From NCBI GenBank assembly GCA_021820465.1, contig JAKADP010000006.1, forward strand, positions 425 through 64,424: a stretch of DNA of 64,000 nt, given 5' to 3'. This document shows, one piece after another, positions 7,583-62,699 of the stretch. The notes beneath the pieces are model-generated. The model worked only from the letters and a program-made list of their open reading frames with translations. It searched no databases and was not told the DNA's origin. Source of the stretch: Bacillota bacterium. GTDB lineage: Bacteria > Bacillota > Sulfobacillia > Sulfobacillales > JAIMBI01. A program made the translations under genes and the position numbers. Position 1 is the first letter of the stretch. Every line of letters begins with the position of its first letter.

Positions 7583-8701
7583 ATGGAGGCGGAGGTGCGC
7601 CCCATCCGAGGGCGCGAGGAGCTGGAGCAGTGCTTTGATTTGTGGGGCACCGTGTTTGGGGAGGGCCGGAGGTTCTTTCAAAGTCGGCTGGACGGCGATC
7701 GGGCGTACGATCCCTCCACCACCTGGGTGGCCGTGGCGGCGGGGGACATTGTGAGCGCGGCGCAGATTTTTCCCTTCGACGCGCGCTGGGGTTCCGGCAC
7801 GGTGACGGTGGCGGGCATTGGGAGCGTGGCCACGCGGGCAAGCCACCGGGGCCAGGGGCTGGCGCTGGCGGTGCTGAATGCCCAGCGCGCCTGGCTGGCC
7901 GACCAAGGCGTCCCGCTGGCGCTCCTGTTTGCGCGGGAGCGCGCGATTCCTCTTTATGAGCGGGCGGGCTACGTGCGCCTGCCGTTTGGCACCACCGTGG
8001 CCTGGTCTCCGGACGGCGCGGCGGCACGGGGCGGCTACCGCGTGCGCGCCGCGCAGCCGGGAGACTGGCCAGACATCCGCGCCATCTATGCCGCCCAGCT
8101 GGACCACTGGCCGCTGGGGCATGTCCGCTCCGACGCGTTTTGGACTGACGCCGTCCGGTGGGCGCAGCAGGCTCAGCCCGAGGGAGTCTGGCTGGTGGCC
8201 GAGCAAGCTGGCCGGCTGGCCGGGTATTTCTTCGGCGAAATCCCCGAGGGAGGATCCTCCGGCGAGGCGCCCATCCGGCTCTGGGAGGTGGTGGCTCACC
8301 CGGAGCATCCCGGGGCCGCCGAGGCGCTGGTGGACGACGCCCACCAGCGCATGGGGGCGCCGGGCGACGTGCGCCTCTCTCTGCCCGCGGGGCATATCCT
8401 GGCACGAGGGCGCGCGGTGGCCCCCGGGCGCCACCGCGGGATGTGGTCCCTCGTGAATGCCGCGGCCCTGATGCGCGCCATTGGCCCCGTGCTGATGCGG
8501 CGCGCGGAGGACGCAGGCATGCCTGCCCTCACGCTCCGCACCGGACCAAGCGACGTGCGGCTGGCGTGGGCCGGTGGAGTTCGGACGCTCCAAGGGGCGG
8601 ACTTGCTGCAGGCCGTGGTGATGGGGATCGACGGCGACCAGGGGCTGGGCGCTCTGTTTCCGGCGGCGACGCCGTTTCTGTGGAGCCTGGATCAGTTTTG
8701 A
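7583..8701 (+). CDS. GNAT N-acetyltransferase, Eis-like multidomain type
   Basis: 372 aa. N-terminal GNAT with HRGQGLALAVL (acetyl-CoA loop), a second GNAT-like region and a C-terminal extension, as in Eis-type enzymes. GGGGAGGG precedes ATG 7583. Confidence 0.7.
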   Translation: MEAEVRPIRGREELEQCFDLWGTVFGEGRRFFQSRLDGDRAYDPSTTWVAVAAGDIVSAAQIFPFDARWGSGTVTVAGIGSVATRASHRGQGLALAVLNAQRAWLADQGVPLALLFARERAIPLYERAGYVRLPFGTTVAWSPDGAAARGGYRVRAAQPGDWPDIRAIYAAQLDHWPLGHVRSDAFWTDAVRWAQQAQPEGVWLVAEQAGRLAGYFFGEIPEGGSSGEAPIRLWEVVAHPEHPGAAEALVDDAHQRMGAPGDVRLSLPAGHILARGRAVAPGRHRGMWSLVNAAALMRAIGPVLMRRAEDAGMPALTLRTGPSDVRLAWAGGVRTLQGADLLQAVVMGIDGDQGLGALFPAATPFLWSLDQF

Positions 8702-9237
8702 TGGACCGTCCCTGGGCTGGGGGACCCGGACGCTTTCGGCTGCCGAGGGCGCCGGGGGGCCATGCCGCCGAACAAGGCGAAGATGCAGCCCAAGAGCGCC
8801 ATCTGCAGCGCGTTGTTGACCACGTACGTGGAAAACGCCGGGTGCAAGACGGCCGCAACCAGCTGGGCGTGGGAGCTGGCGGTGGCGCCAGCCGTGCCAT
8901 GGAGAGCGCGATACGTGTGCCACAGGACGCGAATAAGCGTCGCCTTGCCCGGTATGACCAAGGCCGCCACGTAGGTGGCCAGCCCCGCGACCAAGCCGTA
9001 CACGAGTCCCGACCACAGTCCCACGATGAGCGGATGGTTGCCGCGGCGCCGCGCGACACCGCCCGCCAGCACAAACAAGCCCAAGGGGATGACGCCGAGC
9101 AGCACATTCCACCACACGCCGGGATCGAGGGCGGTGGCCACCTTGAACCCAATGGACAGATCCAGCGCCGCCAGTGCGATGCCCAGCAGGCTGAACAGCA
9201 GCCCGAGTCGTATGCCGGTGCGTGTTCCGGTCCACAT
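8692..9237 (-). CDS. integral membrane protein of unknown function
   Basis: 181 aa with 4-5 hydrophobic helices. Start ATG 9237 behind GGGGAGG; the longer ORF reaching 9465 has an Arg/Pro-rich, non-protein-like N-terminus. Confidence 0.55.
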   Translation of the reverse strand: MWTGTRTGIRLGLLFSLLGIALAALDLSIGFKVATALDPGVWWNVLLGVIPLGLFVLAGGVARRRGNHPLIVGLWSGLVYGLVAGLATYVAALVIPGKATLIRVLWHTYRALHGTAGATASSHAQLVAAVLHPAFSTYVVNNALQMALLGCIFALFGGMAPRRPRQPKASGSPSPGTVHQN

Positions 9238-55763: not shown

Positions 55764-56006
55764 CTACGCATCCCGAAGCGCCTCGAGAAATTCCTGGCGG
55801 GTTATCCCCGCTTGCCGGATAGCGGTCCGCAGCGTAGAGCCCTTGATAGTGGAATGGTTGGGAAGCGTCATGAGGGAGCGAGTTCCGTCGGAATTTTGCC
55901 TCTGCAAGGCAAGATGTGGCCCTGAACGGACTTCCACAAAGCCCAACACCCCCAAAGCCTTCAGGACGTCCCGGATGGGAGCATCTTTCGGAAATGCCGC
56001 GTTCAT
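55764..56006 (-). CDS. hicA: HicA-family mRNA interferase toxin
   Basis: 80 aa. IRDVLKALGVLGFVEVRSGPHLAL...TLPNHSTIKGSTLRTAIRQAGITRQEF matches the HicA pattern. ATG 56006 lies 10 nt after GAGGAG. Confidence 0.75.
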   Translation of the reverse strand: MNAAFPKDAPIRDVLKALGVLGFVEVRSGPHLALQRQNSDGTRSLMTLPNHSTIKGSTLRTAIRQAGITRQEFLEALRDA

Positions 56007-56013
56007 GGGTGTA

Positions 56014-56586
56014 TCACTCCTCGGCAAACGGTAGGGTCACGATGAAGCGGGCTAGGCGTTGTGCCTCGCCGGGCGACAAGTCCTCGGGAATTTGTAACGT
56101 GGCATCGAGTCCGGGTCTGACGGGAAAATTAATGGCGACGATGCGAATGCCCGTGGCTGCCCTGGGAGAATCGGCGATAGGTTGACTCGCGCGATGTCGG
56201 CTGGCGGCCCCTCGGGCCCTGCTTGGGGGCTGAGCAGTTCTGCGGTGAGTGCCTGTGGCGAGGCTGTCCCCGGCCAGCCACCGTAAGTATAGGTCGACGG
56301 CGGCTTTGAATCGTTGCGCATAGGTGTCGATGGTTCGGTCGTTGAATCTGGCGGTTCCGCGGTGCCGGTTGCGGAAGCGAATAGTCAACCCGTCGATGTC
56401 GGCCGTAGCTAGCGCGAGAGCATCCTGCTCACCGTCCAAGACACGGCGGCAAGCGTTTTGGAGAGCGGTAGCTCTGGCCCGCGGAAGCTCGCCCTTCTCG
56501 ATCGCATGGTCAAGGAATGCCCGTAGCCCGGCTACGGTGCCCGAGGAAGCGACGGACACATCGCCGTCCATTATCGGTGGGAGCAC
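56014..56586 (-). CDS. hypothetical protein, 190 aa, immediately upstream of hicA
   Basis: GTG 56586 behind CAGGAGGTG. Its stop lies 7 nt before the hicA ATG, and its last codons supply the hicA SD. The C-terminus reads FPVRPGLDATLQIPEDLSPGEAQRLARFIVTL. No family recognised. Confidence 0.6.
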   Translation of the reverse strand: MLPPIMDGDVSVASSGTVAGLRAFLDHAIEKGELPRARATALQNACRRVLDGEQDALALATADIDGLTIRFRNRHRGTARFNDRTIDTYAQRFKAAVDLYLRWLAGDSLATGTHRRTAQPPSRARGAASRHRASQPIADSPRAATGIRIVAINFPVRPGLDATLQIPEDLSPGEAQRLARFIVTLPFAEE

Positions 56587-56897
56587 TTCGCCACCTCCTG
56601 TACCCTAGAGTCAGGATCCCCGAGTCATCGGCATCATGCCACGATCCTCGGTCCGTATCCAATCGTCCTAATAAAATATTCTGTGCGACCGTCGCAAGTT
56701 ACCTTTTTTGTATGAGCAGCAAGGAGTTCAGCTGGCATCTGTGAGTACCGTCCTGTTAACAGAGTGATCGAGACCTGTCTGGACCGGAACATAGCGGCAA
56801 TGGCTCCGGGTTGTTTTAGGCTGCGCGACGGTCGTGAAACCGTTTCTGGGTAACCGTACGGGTGTGGTGGTGAGCTACGGGGCGGGGGCCCTGGCTA

Positions 56898-58134
56898 GTG
56901 TAGCCATTCCAAGTGTGTGACAGATTGGAGGGGGTGGGGTGCGCTGGGATCGTTCTTCGTGGGAGGTGATCCCGATGCCCCGTCCCCGCACGGTGCCGCG
57001 CTTGACCGTCAGTACCGCGGAGGTGACCTACCTGGACCGGGTGGCCCGTTCCCGCATGGCGCCCGTCTGCACGGTGCCGCGCGCCCGGATTCTCGCGGCG
57101 TATGGGGCTGGCGCCAGCGGCCCGGCGATTGCCGCGACCTGGGCGTGCCCCTGCCGACGGTGATGCGGTGTGTCAAGAAAGCGTTGGCGCTGGGGCCCCG
57201 GCGGGCGCTCGAAGACTTGCCCCGGGCGGGCCGCCCCCCGCGCATTACCGCAGAGACCCGGGCGTGGATCGTGAGCCTCGCGTGCCAAAAGCCCAAGGAT
57301 CTGGGCTGGGCCCCCGAGTGCTGGACCGAGTCCCTGCGCGCCCGCTACGTGCGCGAACACGCCGCGCCGGCCGGCCATCCCTCTGCGGGCCAGATCCAAC
57401 AGGGCACCCTCTCCAAGCTGTTGGCCGCGCAGGACCTGGACCCGCATCGGGTGCGGTACTACCTGCAACGGGAGGACCCCCATTTCGATGCCAAGATGGG
57501 CAGGTCTTGCACGTGTACCAGCAGGTGACCTTTGCCTTCAACCCCGAGGACACCGGCTCGCAGTGCGCTGGTCCTACGACGAAAAGCCGGGGATTCAAGC
57601 GCTACCGGCGATCGCCCGCGAAAGCCCGGGGTCGCCGACCAGGGCAGCTGGGAGCGGGATTATGAGTACCAACGCCTGGGCACCCGCACGCTGCTGGCCG
57701 GCATTGACCTAGCGACGGGCGAGGTGCTGGGGTTGGTGCGGGCCCGGCACCGGAGTCGGGAGTTCGTGGAGTGGGTGCAGGCGCTGGACGCGAAGTACGA
57801 CGCCAAGGTGAAGATCCAGGTGGTGCTGGACAACCATTCCGCCCACACCTCGCAGGAGACCCGACGCTACTTGGCCACCCAGCCCAATCGGTTCGCCTTC
57901 GTGCTTACCCCGGTCCACGCCTCCTGGCTGAACCTGATCATGGTGTTCTTCGCCAAACTGGCCAAGCAGTGCTTGCGGGGGATCCGCGTGGCGTCCGCGG
58001 AGGAACTCGAAACCCGCCTCCAGCAATACCTGGACGGGGTGAACCAGGACCCGGTCCCCTTTCGCTGGCGGTGGCGCTTCGAGTCCGCGGACCCGCCAGA
58101 CTCACAACAGGACGGCAGTTAGAAATGGATCTAC
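56898..58134 (+). mobile_element. IS630-family insertion sequence, transposase decayed
   Basis: Imperfect terminal IRs: GTGTAGCCATTCCAAGTG (left) and the reverse complement of CAGTTAGAAATGGATCTAC (right). Each is flanked by TA (56896-56897 and 58135-58136). The transposase pieces (HTH, RAGRPPRIT, SYDEKPGIQAL, DNHSAH, SWLNLI) are spread over three frames with an in-frame stop at 57529. Confidence 0.75.
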
Positions 58135-58702: not shown

Positions 58703-59854
58703 CTAGGGACCTCCCACGGCGTTGGCCCACGCGGGGGTAGTGGGAGCCGCGGCCGTCCGGGCGGCCAGCGGGCTCCAGCTGGGCTGGCCGGCCGGGTTCA
58801 AGGCGAGGCGGTATTCGGTGGTCTGCCGTGGGCGGCCCAAGACGAGCCGCTGGCCGCCCTCCAGCACCACGGTGGTTCGCAGAGGCACGAGGGTGGGCCA
58901 CACGCGGGAGGTCCAATGTAGCCCGCCGTCGGATGTGGCGTACAGCACAAGCTGCAGAGACGTGGCCGACGTCGGAATGGTCACGGGCACCCACACCACC
59001 CCCGTGGGGGACAAGCTGGGCGCGCCTTCCAGGATATTGGTGCTGGCCGCGCTTGGCGGCAGCTGGAGTGCCCGCGCCACCCAGGTGATGCCGCCGTTGG
59101 TGGTGGTCAGGATCCGGGCCGAATCGAAGGCCGGCGTGTTGATGGTCGCGATGCCCGATCCATCCCGGCGGAACGCTATGGCATTGACGTCCTCAAAGAG
59201 CGGGGAGTGCCCGGATGGCGCTTGGGATGCTTGCAGCAGCTGCCAGTGGCGGCCGCCGTCCACGGTGCCCAGCAGGGCATTCATCTGACTCCCGGCAAGG
59301 TCCTGAGATGTGAGGAGCATCCACCCGCGGCGGGCACTCACAAACTGGATTTGGAGAGACCCGCCGGCCACCGAGGATCCCCACGGCGATGCAAGTGGTG
59401 CGGTCCCACGCGTCCAGTGCACGCCGCGGTCGGTCGTTTCGTCAACCGTCACGGCGGTCCCGTGGGGCGGTTCAACGGCCACTACCGCCACGTTGGGGGC
59501 GGGGAACGCTTCCGCCACCGTGGCATCCCCTTGGCCGGCGCTCTGCCCTGATCCGCTGAGCGGTGCGCCCAAGGCCACGCGGGCCAACCCGGGCGGCCCG
59601 CTGCCCACCCACGATGTGCCGCCGCCGCGGGCCTCTACCGAGTTTGCCGGTGGCAGGGCCCACCCGCCTGCCGCTGAACCCGCCGCGATAAATGAGAAGG
59701 CGAGGGGGAGCCGCGGGCGGCGGGTTTCTGTCCTGGGCCGGGGCGGTGCCCCGGATGCCGTCGGGTGCAGCGCGGCGGGCCCGCACCCGGCCAGCAGGGC
59801 CGACGCCATCATCGCCATCATCGCGGCCGTCCGCCGCGGTGCTCCCTGCCCCAA
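58703..59854 (-). CDS. lipoprotein with BNR/Asp-box beta-propeller repeats, third paralog
   Basis: TTG 59854 lies 6 nt after GGAGG. Signal MGQGAPRRTAAMMAMMASALLAGC. Boxes TTDRGVHW, TVDGGRHW, TTNGGITW, TSDGGLHW. Confidence 0.7.
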   Translation of the reverse strand: MGQGAPRRTAAMMAMMASALLAGCGPAALHPTASGAPPRPRTETRRPRLPLAFSFIAAGSAAGGWALPPANSVEARGGGTSWVGSGPPGLARVALGAPLSGSGQSAGQGDATVAEAFPAPNVAVVAVEPPHGTAVTVDETTDRGVHWTRGTAPLASPWGSSVAGGSLQIQFVSARRGWMLLTSQDLAGSQMNALLGTVDGGRHWQLLQASQAPSGHSPLFEDVNAIAFRRDGSGIATINTPAFDSARILTTTNGGITWVARALQLPPSAASTNILEGAPSLSPTGVVWVPVTIPTSATSLQLVLYATSDGGLHWTSRVWPTLVPLRTTVVLEGGQRLVLGRPRQTTEYRLALNPAGQPSWSPLAARTAAAPTTPAWANAVGGP

Positions 59855-60150
59855 CCCGCACCTCCTCGGCCTCGTGCAGCTCGGGCGCGCGCCGGCGACC
59901 GCGCTGGGTTCTGCTTCTGACTCCTAAACGCCTGGATGGCCCGGCCTGTTGCGCGGCGAGAGAAGCGGGGCGGGGTTGAACCGGGCCAGCGGCGAGCCCT
60001 TGGCGTCGCCGCCGATCCCCAGCAAGAAGGGTGCCTTGGAGTGTGATTTCGGCGCCGCTGCGGTGGGGCTACCGCTTGAGGTGCTGGGAGAGCCGGTCAA
60101 ATTCGGCAGTGTCAATCTCGCCGCGCGCGAGGCGCGCCTCCAAGATCGCC
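59804..60150. repeat. direct repeat copy A (347 bp)
   Basis: Aligns without gaps to 62174..62520 at a constant offset of 2370 bp. I counted 17 mismatches by eye (about 95% identity). Confidence 0.85.
60069..60150 (-). pseudogene. 3-prime remnant of a SHOCT-domain gene (last 26 codons)
   Basis: Encodes AILEARLARGEIDTAEFDRLSQHLKR-stop, one substitution from the C-terminus of 62439..62699. No upstream part is present. Confidence 0.7.
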
Positions 60151-60784
60151 GACGATGTCCGGAGTCGTGGTGCAAAAAGGCGAGATTCCGCCGGGCCCCT
60201 AAGTCTAAAGAGAGCGTAACGGATCTGGGGGGGCGCACGTCAAGCCGGGAACGACGGGGATGGGGCGTTCGCCCTGCATGCATGGCGTCCATAGGGCGGC
60301 CCCAGGGCCGCGTGGGCGCCGGCCGCCCGTTGGGCTCGCTACATGGCCAGGTGGGACGAATACAAGCCTTCGCGGCGCAGATCCAGCCGCCGCGCGGGTC
60401 GGACCACCGGGCGGCAAACCGCGTGCGGTAGGAGAATTTGGCGCGGTCCCGGCGGAGGAGCACGCACACCGGATGCGCGGGCGCCGGCGCGTTCCGCCAA
60501 GGCGTACAGGCGAGGGAGTCCTGCCACGAGCCGAGGGTGATCACTTCGGGGTCGGGCACCGTCTCGAGGATCTCCCGCCGCCACTGGGGCAGCAGATGGT
60601 CTGGCGCCAGCACCAGCCATGGGTAGCCGCCGCCCCCTGCCGTCGGTGCGCCTCCCACGGCACCAGACCCATCGGGAGCGTCTTGCCACCCCCTGCTCGC
60701 CGATGACCAGCGCCCACGCTTCGCGTTGAAGCGTGGTGGCCAGCGCGCGGGGCAATATTTGAGGCTGCTGGGAGCAACGGTCAC
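60151..60784 (-). pseudogene. N-terminal stub of an SF2 (SNF2/DEAD-like) helicase, frameshifted and truncated
   Basis: ALVIGEQ / AGGGKTLPMG (Walker A) / YPWLVLAPDHLLPQWRREILE (motif Ia-like) lie in three different frames. The frame switches coincide with C5 runs at 60689-60693 and 60633-60637. The sequence ends at the repeat boundary. Confidence 0.45.
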
Positions 60785-60826
60785 CGTGTCGATATTGAGA
60801 GTGGGAGGCCTCGTCCCGCGACGCGG

Positions 60827-61311
60827 TTAGGAATCGGACGGGGATTGAAGGTCTTCCATCTCGACCTGGCGTGAATACGGGAACGGTTGCCGGACGAGAA
60901 CGCCCTCAACCTCATGGCCCAAGGGAAAGCCCTTGTCCCATGTCATTAAGTACTGGCACTTAGCTCGAATCGCGGACGCTATATGAATCGCATCGGGTCC
61001 CCGTAGTCCTCGCAGGCGTGAAAGTTTGCGGGCATGGCGGGCTACCGGTAGATCTACCTCTACCCAGTGGATAAATTTATGATGGAAGAAGGCGTCGACC
61101 ATCAAGTCGACCCGTGCCATGTCTTTAGACGAACGGACATCACCGTGGCCGCAGACCTCCGCATAAACCAGGGTGCTCGCGACAATGGCATAATGGCCTT
61201 GCTCGGCGCCCTCGAGAAGACGCCGAGCTACGTCGGCCTACCTGCTTCTCCCTTGATCACTGCTAAGTAGACGTTGGAATCCAGGTAAATGGGACCCGCT
61301 CCCTCATTCAT
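60827..61311 (-). pseudogene. PIN-domain (VapC-like) nuclease gene with a frameshift
   Basis: MNEGAGPIYLDSNVYLAVIKGEAGRP stops at 61228-61230. The next frame, open from 61237, continues with VARRLLEGAEQGHYAIVASTLVYAEV...GPDAIHIASAI...YLMTWDKGF. All four PIN acidic positions are visible. Confidence 0.7.
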
Positions 61312-62224
61312 TTCGGACCCACCGGATGTACTCGTCCGTTGACATCGAGCCTGTATACCAAGGCGCAATGCCGACCAAGTCAGCTACCGACGGCCCGTCT
61401 GATTCATCTGGGAGTCGTTCCAGCTGATCTACGTCCACGCTTAGGATCTGTCCCCGTCGGTTGCGCGTGACGGTGCCGAGTGCGCGGACGCGGTGGCCCA
61501 ATGCATCGCGGATCTCGTCGAGATGCTCCTTCGGGAACCGGCAGTTCACGGCGCGACGTGTCTCTTCGTCGTAGAGGCTTACGTGGCGCCCGCGTCGCAG
61601 GTTGATGATGTCCAACACCCCGACGGCTGAGCCAACTGTTTGCTCCACTGCCTCAATCGAGGCGCGTGCGTTGGCCACTACCGAGCCTGTGACCGGCTCT
61701 GGCTGGTCTGACAGGGCCGCGTTCGGAACGCGATAGCTAATGCCGCTGATGCCTTCTTGGAGGAAGTATTTACCTATTTTCACCAAGTGACCCGCAAGGG
61801 TCGGCGAAAAGAAGCGGGGCAGTTCCTCTGCCTCACGTAACTGGCGAATCCCATCCACTAGTCGCTGTGGCGTCTCCCCGCTAGCTACTCCTTCACGTCG
61901 TAGCACGGCGACGGCACTGCCGCTGCGAAGATCTTCGATGAGCCACTGGCTCGGAGGTGACTGAAGCGCCCGGTCAAGCTCGTCGAGCATTTGAAGGCTC
62001 GTCCGTAGAACGTCCAAGAATGCTCGTGCGGGGATGGCGCCGACACTTCCTTCCACTCGAACTTCCAGACGCGACTCAGGCACCTTGACCCCCTCTTCCA
62101 GCGCAACCTCTCCGGCTATTTTACGAAGAATTTGCGGGCAATGCGATGGGGGCATCAGCGGCGTCTCCCTCACCGCCATCGTCGCCATCATCGCGGCCGT
62201 CCGCCGCGGTGCTCCCTGCCCCAA
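61304..62224 (-). CDS. hypothetical protein (306 aa; 283 aa from its own ATG 62155), upstream partner of the PIN gene
   Basis: Intact ORF. The first 17 codons belong to repeat copy B and copy the lipoprotein signal start. An internal ATG at 62155 has its own GAGGGAGA SD. The stop overlaps the PIN ATG (ATGAATGA). No family recognised. Confidence 0.6.
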   Translation of the reverse strand: MGQGAPRRTAAMMATMAVRETPLMPPSHCPQILRKIAGEVALEEGVKVPESRLEVRVEGSVGAIPARAFLDVLRTSLQMLDELDRALQSPPSQWLIEDLRSGSAVAVLRREGVASGETPQRLVDGIRQLREAEELPRFFSPTLAGHLVKIGKYFLQEGISGISYRVPNAALSDQPEPVTGSVVANARASIEAVEQTVGSAVGVLDIINLRRGRHVSLYDEETRRAVNCRFPKEHLDEIRDALGHRVRALGTVTRNRRGQILSVDVDQLERLPDESDGPSVADLVGIAPWYTGSMSTDEYIRWVRNE

Positions 62225-62520
62225 CTCGCACCTCCTCGGCCTCGTGCAGCTCGGGCGCGCGCCGGCGACCCCGCTGGCTTCTGCTTCTGACTCCTAAACA
62301 CCTGGATGGCCCGGCCTGTTGCGCGGCGAGAGAAGCGGGGCGGGGTTGAACCGGTCCGGCGGCGAGCCCTAGGTCTCGCCGCCGATCCCCAGCAAGAAGG
62401 GTGCGTTGCGGTGTGATGTCGGCGTCGCTGCGGTGGGGCTACCGCTTGAGGTGCTGGGAGAGCCGGTCAAATTCGGCAGGGTCAATCTCGCCGCGCGCGA
62501 GCCGCGCCTCCAAGATCGCC
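62174..62520. repeat. direct repeat copy B (347 bp)
   Basis: See copy A. It covers the SHOCT gene 3-prime end, a 214-bp spacer and the first 17 codons of the downstream ORF. Confidence 0.85.
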
Positions 62521-62699
62521 AGGGCATCCGTGGGGCCGTAGGGCACCGGGCCGCAGCGATTCGGGCCATAGAATCCGCGGCGAGGCGAAAGCCAGCGCCA
62601 GAGGCCAAACGCCGCGGCCAAGATGACAATCCACCCGATCGGCCAGAACAACCACCATCCACCTGACCATCCACCTGACCATCCCCCGTATCCTGGCAT
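62439..62699 (-). CDS. SHOCT-domain small membrane protein
   Basis: 86 aa. Gly/Trp-rich N-terminus GGWSGGWSGGWW, one TM helix, and C-terminal ILEARLARGEIDPAEFDRL (SHOCT motif). Confidence 0.7.
   Translation of the reverse strand: MPGYGGWSGGWSGGWWLFWPIGWIVILAAAFGLWRWLSPRRGFYGPNRCGPVPYGPTDALAILEARLARGEIDPAEFDRLSQHLKR

Follow-up and report, generated by a model that had tools for sequence, protein, structure and literature searches.

The window analyzed here, a 64,000-nucleotide (nt) stretch of a contig from a Bacillota bacterium, carries on its minus strand, between positions 60151 and 62224, what appears to be a decayed copy of a real, conserved, and widespread two-gene cassette, in which a gene of a large, unnamed protein family (termed the lead gene herein) precedes a gene for a PIN nuclease. 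An earlier note on this DNA had read these two genes, together with a helicase-like stub behind them, as one collinear, translationally coupled module. The lead and PIN genes are indeed coupled and lie on one strand, but the coupling does not extend to the helicase stub. We consider it moderately probable that the cassette is a type II toxin-antitoxin or addiction module akin to VapBC, in which a large protein of a new class is the antitoxin.

The succession of a lead and a PIN gene, in most cases with the stop codon of the first overlapping the start codon of the second, recurs at about 45 independent loci. In tblastn searches, a PIN homolog (52 to 60% identical) lay directly 3′ of the lead gene at all 10 close loci (L001 to L010, from Actinomycetota and “Bacillota” metagenome-assembled genomes and from metagenomes), and the arrangement is kept by distant members of the lead family with 27 to 34% identity (L013, L014, and the P0067 locus). 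A metagenome scan with a degenerate DNA pattern for the C-terminal tail of the lead protein (DPDFTG-x5-EY) returned 73 loci, and 59 of the open reading frames (ORFs) fit the family hidden Markov model (HMM). Downstream of full or partial family members, 30 of 32 ORFs matched the PIN model PF01850; the other two are spurious ORFs at damaged loci. Overlaps of 4, 8, 11, 14, 17, 26, or 32 nt between stop and start are the rule in the relatives, and the lead stop and PIN start of the window share, as the earlier note had reported, the 8 nt ATGAATGA. The note had also placed the lead gene in the position of an antitoxin and asked whether its homologs adjoin PIN genes in other genomes; they do, with PIN following essentially always.

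The lead family appears to be not only large and unnamed but also undescribed in the libraries and literature that we searched. A first homolog search returned 32 metagenomic homologs, typically of 261 to 264 amino acids and in a few cases of up to 307, with no Pfam domain, and full-length alignments of the window protein to 29 homologs show 27 to 63% identity. A profile search of 1.84 billion cluster representatives yielded 2,944 clusters (50% identity) at an E value of ≤1e-3, 1,554 at ≤1e-10, and 187 at ≤1e-30, with nearly full-length coverage in most of the best 150 matches. The window protein bears the marks of this family, namely, a length of about 260 amino acids, the full-length alignment, the motifs GSVxGxL and RNxxGQ, and a C-terminal tail of the form G-x-x-P-x-x-T-G...Y.R..R.

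No model in Pfam, NCBIfam, PADLOC, or PHROGs matched the lead protein. When 118 diverse family members were compared with Pfam, no consistent family and no RHH, AbrB, Phd, or HTH domain emerged; a single member matched the OB-fold model PF13742 (tRNA_anti_2; E value, 3.7e-6). The family profile found nothing among PDB sequences at an E value of ≤10, a profile of the tail alone found only chance matches there to NADH-quinone oxidoreductase subunit 5, and tblastn searches with the lead protein gave no matches among annotated plasmids and phages. A scan of viral contigs for the close family found none; a motif scan of viral contigs recovered one family member (L097; IMG/VR UViG_3300037310_000117), the PIN gene of which is interrupted soon after its start. 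In their sources, the family members are named “hypothetical protein” or not at all, and a literature search found no paper on an OB-fold partner (antitoxin) of PIN toxins. The earlier note had seen no RHH, AbrB, or HTH domain in the lead protein and could name no described system with such a gene; Pfam and NCBIfam scans and the predicted structure agree with the former statement, and the libraries searched hold no characterized family that would contradict the latter.

AlphaFold predicts a lead protein of three parts (full-length model: predicted local distance difference test [pLDDT], 83.9; predicted template modeling score [pTM], 0.77). The N-terminal part is an alpha+beta domain of predicted ferredoxin-like fold, which reached a pLDDT of 91.1 and a pTM of 0.86 when modeled separately. 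Foldseek searches of the PDB with this domain gave weak matches to dimeric ferredoxin-like proteins (best E value, 0.035; template modeling [TM] score of up to ∼0.45), and it appears to be without a close solved structural relative. The second part is a predicted barrel of five strands with a helix between strands 3 and 4, which is typical of OB folds, and it was matched in Foldseek searches by the OB domains of Stn1, LysRS/AsnRS (anticodon-binding domain), and ExoVII at E values of 1e-3 to 3e-2. The third part, a tail of about 35 residues, was modeled with a pLDDT of only 52 to 64, yet few parts of the family are as strongly conserved. Its consensus is PSVDDLVGIAPWYTGDQSTDEYLRSVRGA in the close family and LPxxxDLxG.DPDFTGG.STxEYxRxxR in the wider family, and its G, P, T, and G residues and penultimate R are invariant or near-invariant family-wide. 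The structure search that the earlier note had called for ended in a resemblance to OB and ferredoxin-like folds, and no antitoxin or enzyme family was identified.

In the window, the lead gene is intact and the PIN gene is dead. As the earlier note had described, the PIN gene keeps all four acidic positions (codons GAT 61281-61279, GAG 61159-61157, GAT 60994-60992, and GAC 60937-60935) and is broken by one frameshift, which we identified as a 1-nt deletion. Its frames are related to PIN profiles: once repaired, the sequence matches PF01850 with an E value of 1.7e-12 and shares 52 to 60% identity with the PIN genes that follow lead homologs. The identical lesion is found in two contigs from other samples (L011 and L012; 98.7 to 99.4% identical to the window), and it therefore marks a real pseudogene and not an assembly error of one record. 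Since the PIN gene is inactivated and its partner intact, the locus is to be regarded as an orphan antitoxin-like gene plus debris rather than as a working system. Programmed −1 frameshifting in the PIN gene was considered and rejected; there is no slippery heptamer, and intact relatives read through without a shift. Truncated or frameshifted PIN genes beside intact lead genes were found not only in the window and L011/L012 but also at L001/L002, L010, L026, L032, L063, L089 to L092, and L097. In L089 to L092, four related contigs of which the longest is 4.3 Mb, the lead gene at 8001-8801 (7635-8435 in L091) is intact, and the PIN gene behind it is in two pieces, of 53 and either 121 or 56 amino acids.

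The lead ORF of 306 amino acids reported in the earlier note exists, with a TTG start, and gene callers also report this fusion (P0001); it is likely mis-started, and the real product is likely a protein of about 259 amino acids. Roughly the first 47 codons lie outside the family, because the homologs begin at the position “ESRLEVRVEG”; most of them start there, which corresponds to GTG 62083 in the window, and a few have unrelated N-terminal extensions. Codons 1 to 17 of the 306-amino-acid ORF (MGQGAPRRTAAMMA...; 62224-62174) are the duplicated start of a lipoprotein gene, comprising the n-region of its signal peptide only, in frame with the lead gene. The lead gene of the window is probably still expressed, either from the duplicated promoter region or from its own ribosome-binding site. 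Across the 2-kb insert that the window shares with L011, 12 differences were counted, all of them in the lead gene (9 synonymous and 3 nonsynonymous) and none in the PIN and helicase relics; this pattern suggests purifying selection on the lead gene or, alternatively, a patch of allelic recombination.

The helicase-like stub, to judge from its sequence, is an internal, frameshifted fragment of the SNF2 helicase of a conjugative element, that is, a pseudogene with no functional link to the pair. The AGGGKT and LVLAPDHLLPQWRREI motifs on which the earlier note had based its helicase are present, but in different frames, and they do not mark a gene beginning about 40 bp past the PIN gene. Helicase-like motifs are spread over three frames, which switch at minus-strand G5 runs (C5 on the plus strand) at 60693-60689 and 60637-60633, so that the two frameshifts at C5 runs were correctly located, as was the end of the reading at a repeat boundary (near 60150). 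The full set of helicase motifs I to VI was not found in one frame; the motif I-Ia region and about 60 further residues are all that is there. The stitched stub matched plasmid genes annotated as “SNF2-related protein” or “DEAD/DEAH box helicase” in tblastn searches (30 to 38% identity; E values down to 6e-10), and local searches aligned it to residues 280 to 358 of an 899-amino-acid helicase of pMU3262 and to residues 115 to 178 of a 760-amino-acid SNF2 protein of pVS127 (E values of 4e-12 and 2e-9, respectively), both of which sit after a DUF6094 gene. At least 85 to 245 N-terminal and about 540 to 580 C-terminal residues are missing from the stub, which is frameshifted at least twice. Its HMM matches are weak (E values of 0.014 to 0.06), with only sub-threshold DpdE and ZorD matches in PADLOC, and a word-indexed homolog search with the stitched helicase returned only a near-identical copy, P0033. 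The GC content is ∼72% in the stub versus 55 to 62% in the lead-PIN pair. The stub cannot be translationally coupled to the PIN gene and is not a component of the cassette. The sensor-nuclease-helicase triplet envisaged in the earlier note also failed the co-occurrence search: a relative of the stub is absent from all 10 loci L001 to L010 and is shared only by the near-identical L011 and L012, and the gene after PIN, where visible, is unrelated and differs between loci.

The surroundings of the cassette are mobile or rich in defense genes. At about 9 of some 24 loci with upstream sequence, the gene immediately upstream, on the same strand, encodes an IS1595-family transposase (PF12762, alone or together with PF12760) (L047, L024, L080, L087, L018, L028, L057, L015, and the P0067 locus). 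At L047:136-2852, 25-nt inverted repeats bracket the transposase, lead, and PIN genes, and an 8-bp target duplication, TTTTTTTT, flanks the repeats; by this organization, L047 is a 2.7-kb IS1595-type element with the lead-PIN pair as passenger cargo. The window copy has no IS1595 transposase, and it is flanked by 347-bp direct repeats, not by terminal inverted repeats. Among the other loci, tyrosine-integrase-like genes (judged from N-terminal sequence) are neighbors at L006 and L007; DNA methyltransferases and restriction-type helicases or nucleases at L004, L009, and L014; a possible BREX-type (PglX-like) gene, judged from sequence, at L010; and a TrwC relaxase gene at L001. On the 4.3-Mb metagenomic contig L089, the cassette shares an island with HicAB, Uma2, and HSDR_N genes and with a further PIN gene. 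At L013, a 138-amino-acid HTH_3 (Xre-type) gene (L013:3572-3988) ends 13 nt before the distant lead gene, forming an HTH-lead-PIN triplet; its product may take on the DNA binding for which the lead protein has no domain. In a scan of part of the upstream ORFs at the other loci, no HTH gene of this kind stood out.

Taken together, the partner-first order, the overlaps, the complete PIN tetrad, the mobility, the selective decay of PIN, and the conserved disordered tail are in keeping with an addiction module or a toxin-antitoxin system of type II, the reading to which we give moderate confidence. In such a module, PIN would be a toxic RNase, and the conserved, disordered C-terminal tail of the partner would be laid into the PIN active-site groove and neutralize the nuclease. 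The invariant arginine of the tail may act there like the C-terminal arginine that plays this part in FitA/FitB. The ferredoxin-like domain would mediate oligomerization or dimerization, and the OB fold would bind nucleic acid, for autoregulation or for sensing of a trigger. Several observations weigh against an antitoxin. Classical antitoxins are all far smaller than the partner, and the partner is about as conserved as PIN (56 to 62% versus 52 to 60% identity), which is unusual for an antitoxin. The OB-fold matches are modest (E values of 1e-3 to 3e-2, with TM scores of ∼0.2 over the entire query). Small proteins of about 70 to 150 amino acids with a transmembrane helix or a coiled coil carry the tail motif at their C terminus as well, and no PIN gene follows theirs (L022, L042, L049, L054, L079, L040, L060, L069, L035/L083, and L086); as judged from the sequences alone, their neighbors include methyltransferase-, lytic-transglycosylase-, and CHAP-like genes in phage-like neighborhoods. 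The tail may thus bind something other than PIN, or these small proteins may act in trans, a caveat that bears equally on the two-subunit reading given next. Finally, with an extra HTH gene upstream at some loci, the regulatory logic may differ between loci.

The size of the partner and its PIN-like conservation would suit the main alternative, a two-subunit nuclease, in which the OB-fold protein is an RNA- or single-stranded DNA (ssDNA)-binding subunit that targets or activates PIN, for instance, in a defense effector sensing phage nucleic acid; the two proteins would then work jointly, and neither would inhibit its partner. The resemblance of the OB fold to nucleic-acid-binding OB domains (LysRS/AsnRS, Stn1, ExoVII, and the tRNA_anti_2 match) and the restriction-modification genes, toxin-antitoxin genes, and possible BREX-type gene in the neighborhoods speak for it as well. 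We regard it as unlikely, though with a real chance, because recurrent loss of PIN with the partner kept is expected if PIN is harmful and the partner protective, antitoxin-toxin pairs are canonically laid out in this way, partner first and with overlapping codons, and a conserved disordered C-terminal tail is typical of antitoxins. A further reading, which we judge distinctly unlikely, makes the lead family a new class of nucleic-acid-sensing regulator, with an OB fold that responds to a trigger such as ssDNA or RNA of a phage or transposon and with a tail that is a latch keeping the PIN RNase inactive; this latch peptide would be portable, the small proteins that end in it in phage contexts would be phage-encoded decoys disarming such PIN toxins, and the cassette would also, as an addiction module, stabilize IS1595-type transposons. 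That the two proteins are accessories of such transposons, with the OB fold binding ssDNA and a PIN/FEN-like nuclease aiding transposition, or that they are mere cargo, seems very unlikely: a transposase directly upstream at about 9 of some 24 loci and the three L047 genes between inverted repeats and a target duplication point that way, but at most loci, among them those of all close relatives of the window copy, the pair stands without a transposase, and an addiction module riding on an insertion sequence (IS) accounts for the association equally well. Scarcely credible, finally, is a three-gene defense or abortive-infection system of a sensor-sized protein, PIN, and a superfamily 2 helicase. 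All three do lie in line on a single strand of the window, and helicases and methyltransferases occur near some relatives, but the stub has a relative at no other lead-PIN locus except the near-identical L011/L012, is an internal fragment with a GC content unlike that of the pair, and has its own relatives in the DUF6094-SNF2 gene pair of conjugative plasmids.

The layout of the locus is summarized in Table 1. On the minus strand, the order is the 3′ end of a SHOCT-domain gene, an intergenic region, the lead ORF, the split PIN gene, the helicase-like stretch, a second copy of the SHOCT 3′ end and intergenic region, and a lipoprotein gene. The two repeat copies are 347 bp each, with 17 evenly scattered mismatches and sharp ends, and the 2,024 bp between them (60151-62173) hold all the features described in the earlier note. 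The best explanation for this segment is ∼2 kb of foreign DNA between direct repeats, carrying two unrelated things. One possible origin of the repeat-insert-repeat structure is a single-crossover (Campbell-type) integration of circular DNA with a diverged homologous segment from a related strain. We suggest that the window be annotated as a remnant with a dead PIN gene, a likely mis-started 306-amino-acid ORF, and a helicase pseudogene fragment.

TABLE 1 Features of the lead-PIN locus and its flanks in the window
Feature	Position	Strand	Remarks
SHOCT-domain gene	62439-62699	-	PF09851; its 3′ end heads the minus-strand order
Direct repeat copy B	62174-62520		SHOCT gene 3′ end, intergenic region, and first 17 codons of lipoprotein gene
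Lead ORF as called	61304..62224	-	306 amino acids; TTG 62224 start, TGA stop
Likely spurious 5′ extension of 306-amino-acid ORF	62084..62224	-	Three-frame translation and repeat alignment
Shine-Dalgarno-like GGAAGAGGGGG	62089..62099	-	5 nt upstream of GTG 62083; read directly from sequence
Lead gene, intact	61304..62083	-	259 amino acids; probable start GTG 62083
N-terminal alpha+beta domain, predicted ferredoxin-like	61730..62071	-	Residues 5-118; AlphaFold
Predicted OB-fold barrel	61415..61645	-	Residues ∼147-223; conserved GSVxGxL and RNxxGQ motifs; AlphaFold, Foldseek, conserved columns
C-terminal tail (PSVADLVGIAPWYTGSMSTDEYIRWVRNE)	61307..61411	-	Residues 225-259; proposed PIN-binding element
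Lead stop/PIN start overlap ATGAATGA	61311..61304	-	8 nt
PIN pseudogene piece 1 (MNEGAGPIYLDSNVYLAVIKGEAGRPT, then stop)	61228..61311	-	First catalytic Asp; ends TAG 61230-61228
PIN frameshift site	61231..61239	-	1-nt deletion versus intact homologs (IKGEAGR-V/A-D/E-xAR)
PIN pseudogene piece 2	60827..61237	-	Catalytic E, D, D codons
SNF2-family helicase internal relic, motif I-Ia region	60377..60757	-	Outside cassette
Tail of insert, without assigned gene	60151-60376	-	Helicase similarity stops at 60377
Terminator-like hairpin (GGCGGAATCTCGCC, then TTTTT)	60192-60179	-	∼30 nt ahead of insert/repeat boundary
Direct repeat copy A	59804-60150		95% identical to copy B; runs into intact lipoprotein gene
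BNR-like lipoprotein gene, intact	59854-58703	-	383 amino acids

Three further observations concern the surroundings of the insert. In the near-identical contigs from other samples (L012:1-484 and L011:1-33), the end of an IS1634/IS4-like transposase gene (MRLMKKKIKGHTYWYLVES...) replaces the sequence upstream of window position 62372; this junction is a strain-level IS insertion within repeat copy B. At 55764-56586 of the window (minus strand), a HicA toxin gene (87 amino acids; PF07927) overlaps the 3′ end of an upstream 190-amino-acid ORF without a Pfam match, which may be an unusual partner in the position of HicB. At 56736-58127, there is an IS630-like element with 22-nt inverted repeats, the transposase of which is split into an HTH_32 ORF (56917-57528) and a DDE_3 ORF (57532-58122), either as a frameshifted gene or by programmed frameshifting.

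Compared with known anti-phage systems, the lead and PIN proteins match no system model of PADLOC-DB v2. The best match of the full-length lead model in the viral Foldseek library was a DUF6575 protein (E value, 2e-9; 263 aligned columns), but with TM scores of only 0.29 to 0.37. Proteins with DUF6575 occur in phages and in defense, and one of them figures among the PD systems of Vassallo et al. (2022; PMC9519451). Membership of the lead family in DUF6575 was rejected, since none of the 118 members match its Pfam model and there is no PADLOC match. The helicase stub, for its part, resembles the DUF6094-SNF2 plasmid pair of pMU3262 and pVS127, aligning to the motif I-Ia region and the next ∼60 residues; it differs in that only about 90 to 130 codons of a protein of 760 to 899 amino acids remain and no DUF6094 gene is present in the window.

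PIN nucleases with an OB-type RNA-binding domain in one polypeptide are known from PIN-TRAM proteins, such as YacL, and from Rrp44/Dis3, with its PIN and CSD/S1 domains. The cassette resembles these in combining a PIN nuclease with an OB-type nucleic-acid-binding module, but here the module is predicted to lie on a separate, upstream, co-translated protein of a mobile cassette, without sequence similarity to those families. Insertion sequences of the IS1595 family that carry passenger genes are likewise an established concept in ISfinder. L047, with a Zn-ribbon/DDE transposase and the lead and PIN genes in inverted repeats, and eight other transposase-adjacent loci resemble such elements, whereas the window copy and its close relatives are without transposase and the cassette is not confined to these elements. 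The cargo arrangement would be a concrete instance of an insertion sequence that carries an addiction-type module.

Few toxin-antitoxin systems are as abundant as PIN/VapC modules, and the partners of these PIN toxins are regarded as small DNA-binding proteins. The unnamed family described here, with thousands of sequence clusters, gives a specific set of PIN genes a three-part partner of about 260 amino acids. If this partner is an antitoxin, it would widen the range of antitoxin architectures, and its built-in nucleic-acid-binding domain could be a sensor; if it is a targeting subunit, it would define a new two-part RNase. Compared with VapBC, the partner is three to four times the size of VapB, has none of the RHH, AbrB, Phd, or HTH domains but a predicted ferredoxin-like domain and OB fold, and matches no Pfam or NCBIfam antitoxin model. 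The likeness to VapBC lies in a PIN protein of the PF01850 type with four acidic residues, a partner gene that comes first with a stop/start overlap, contexts of mobile elements and of defense or toxin-antitoxin islands, and a toxin gene that decays while its partner persists. It extends to the end of the partner, a conserved and probably disordered C-terminal segment of the kind that forms the toxin-binding region in VapB and FitA.

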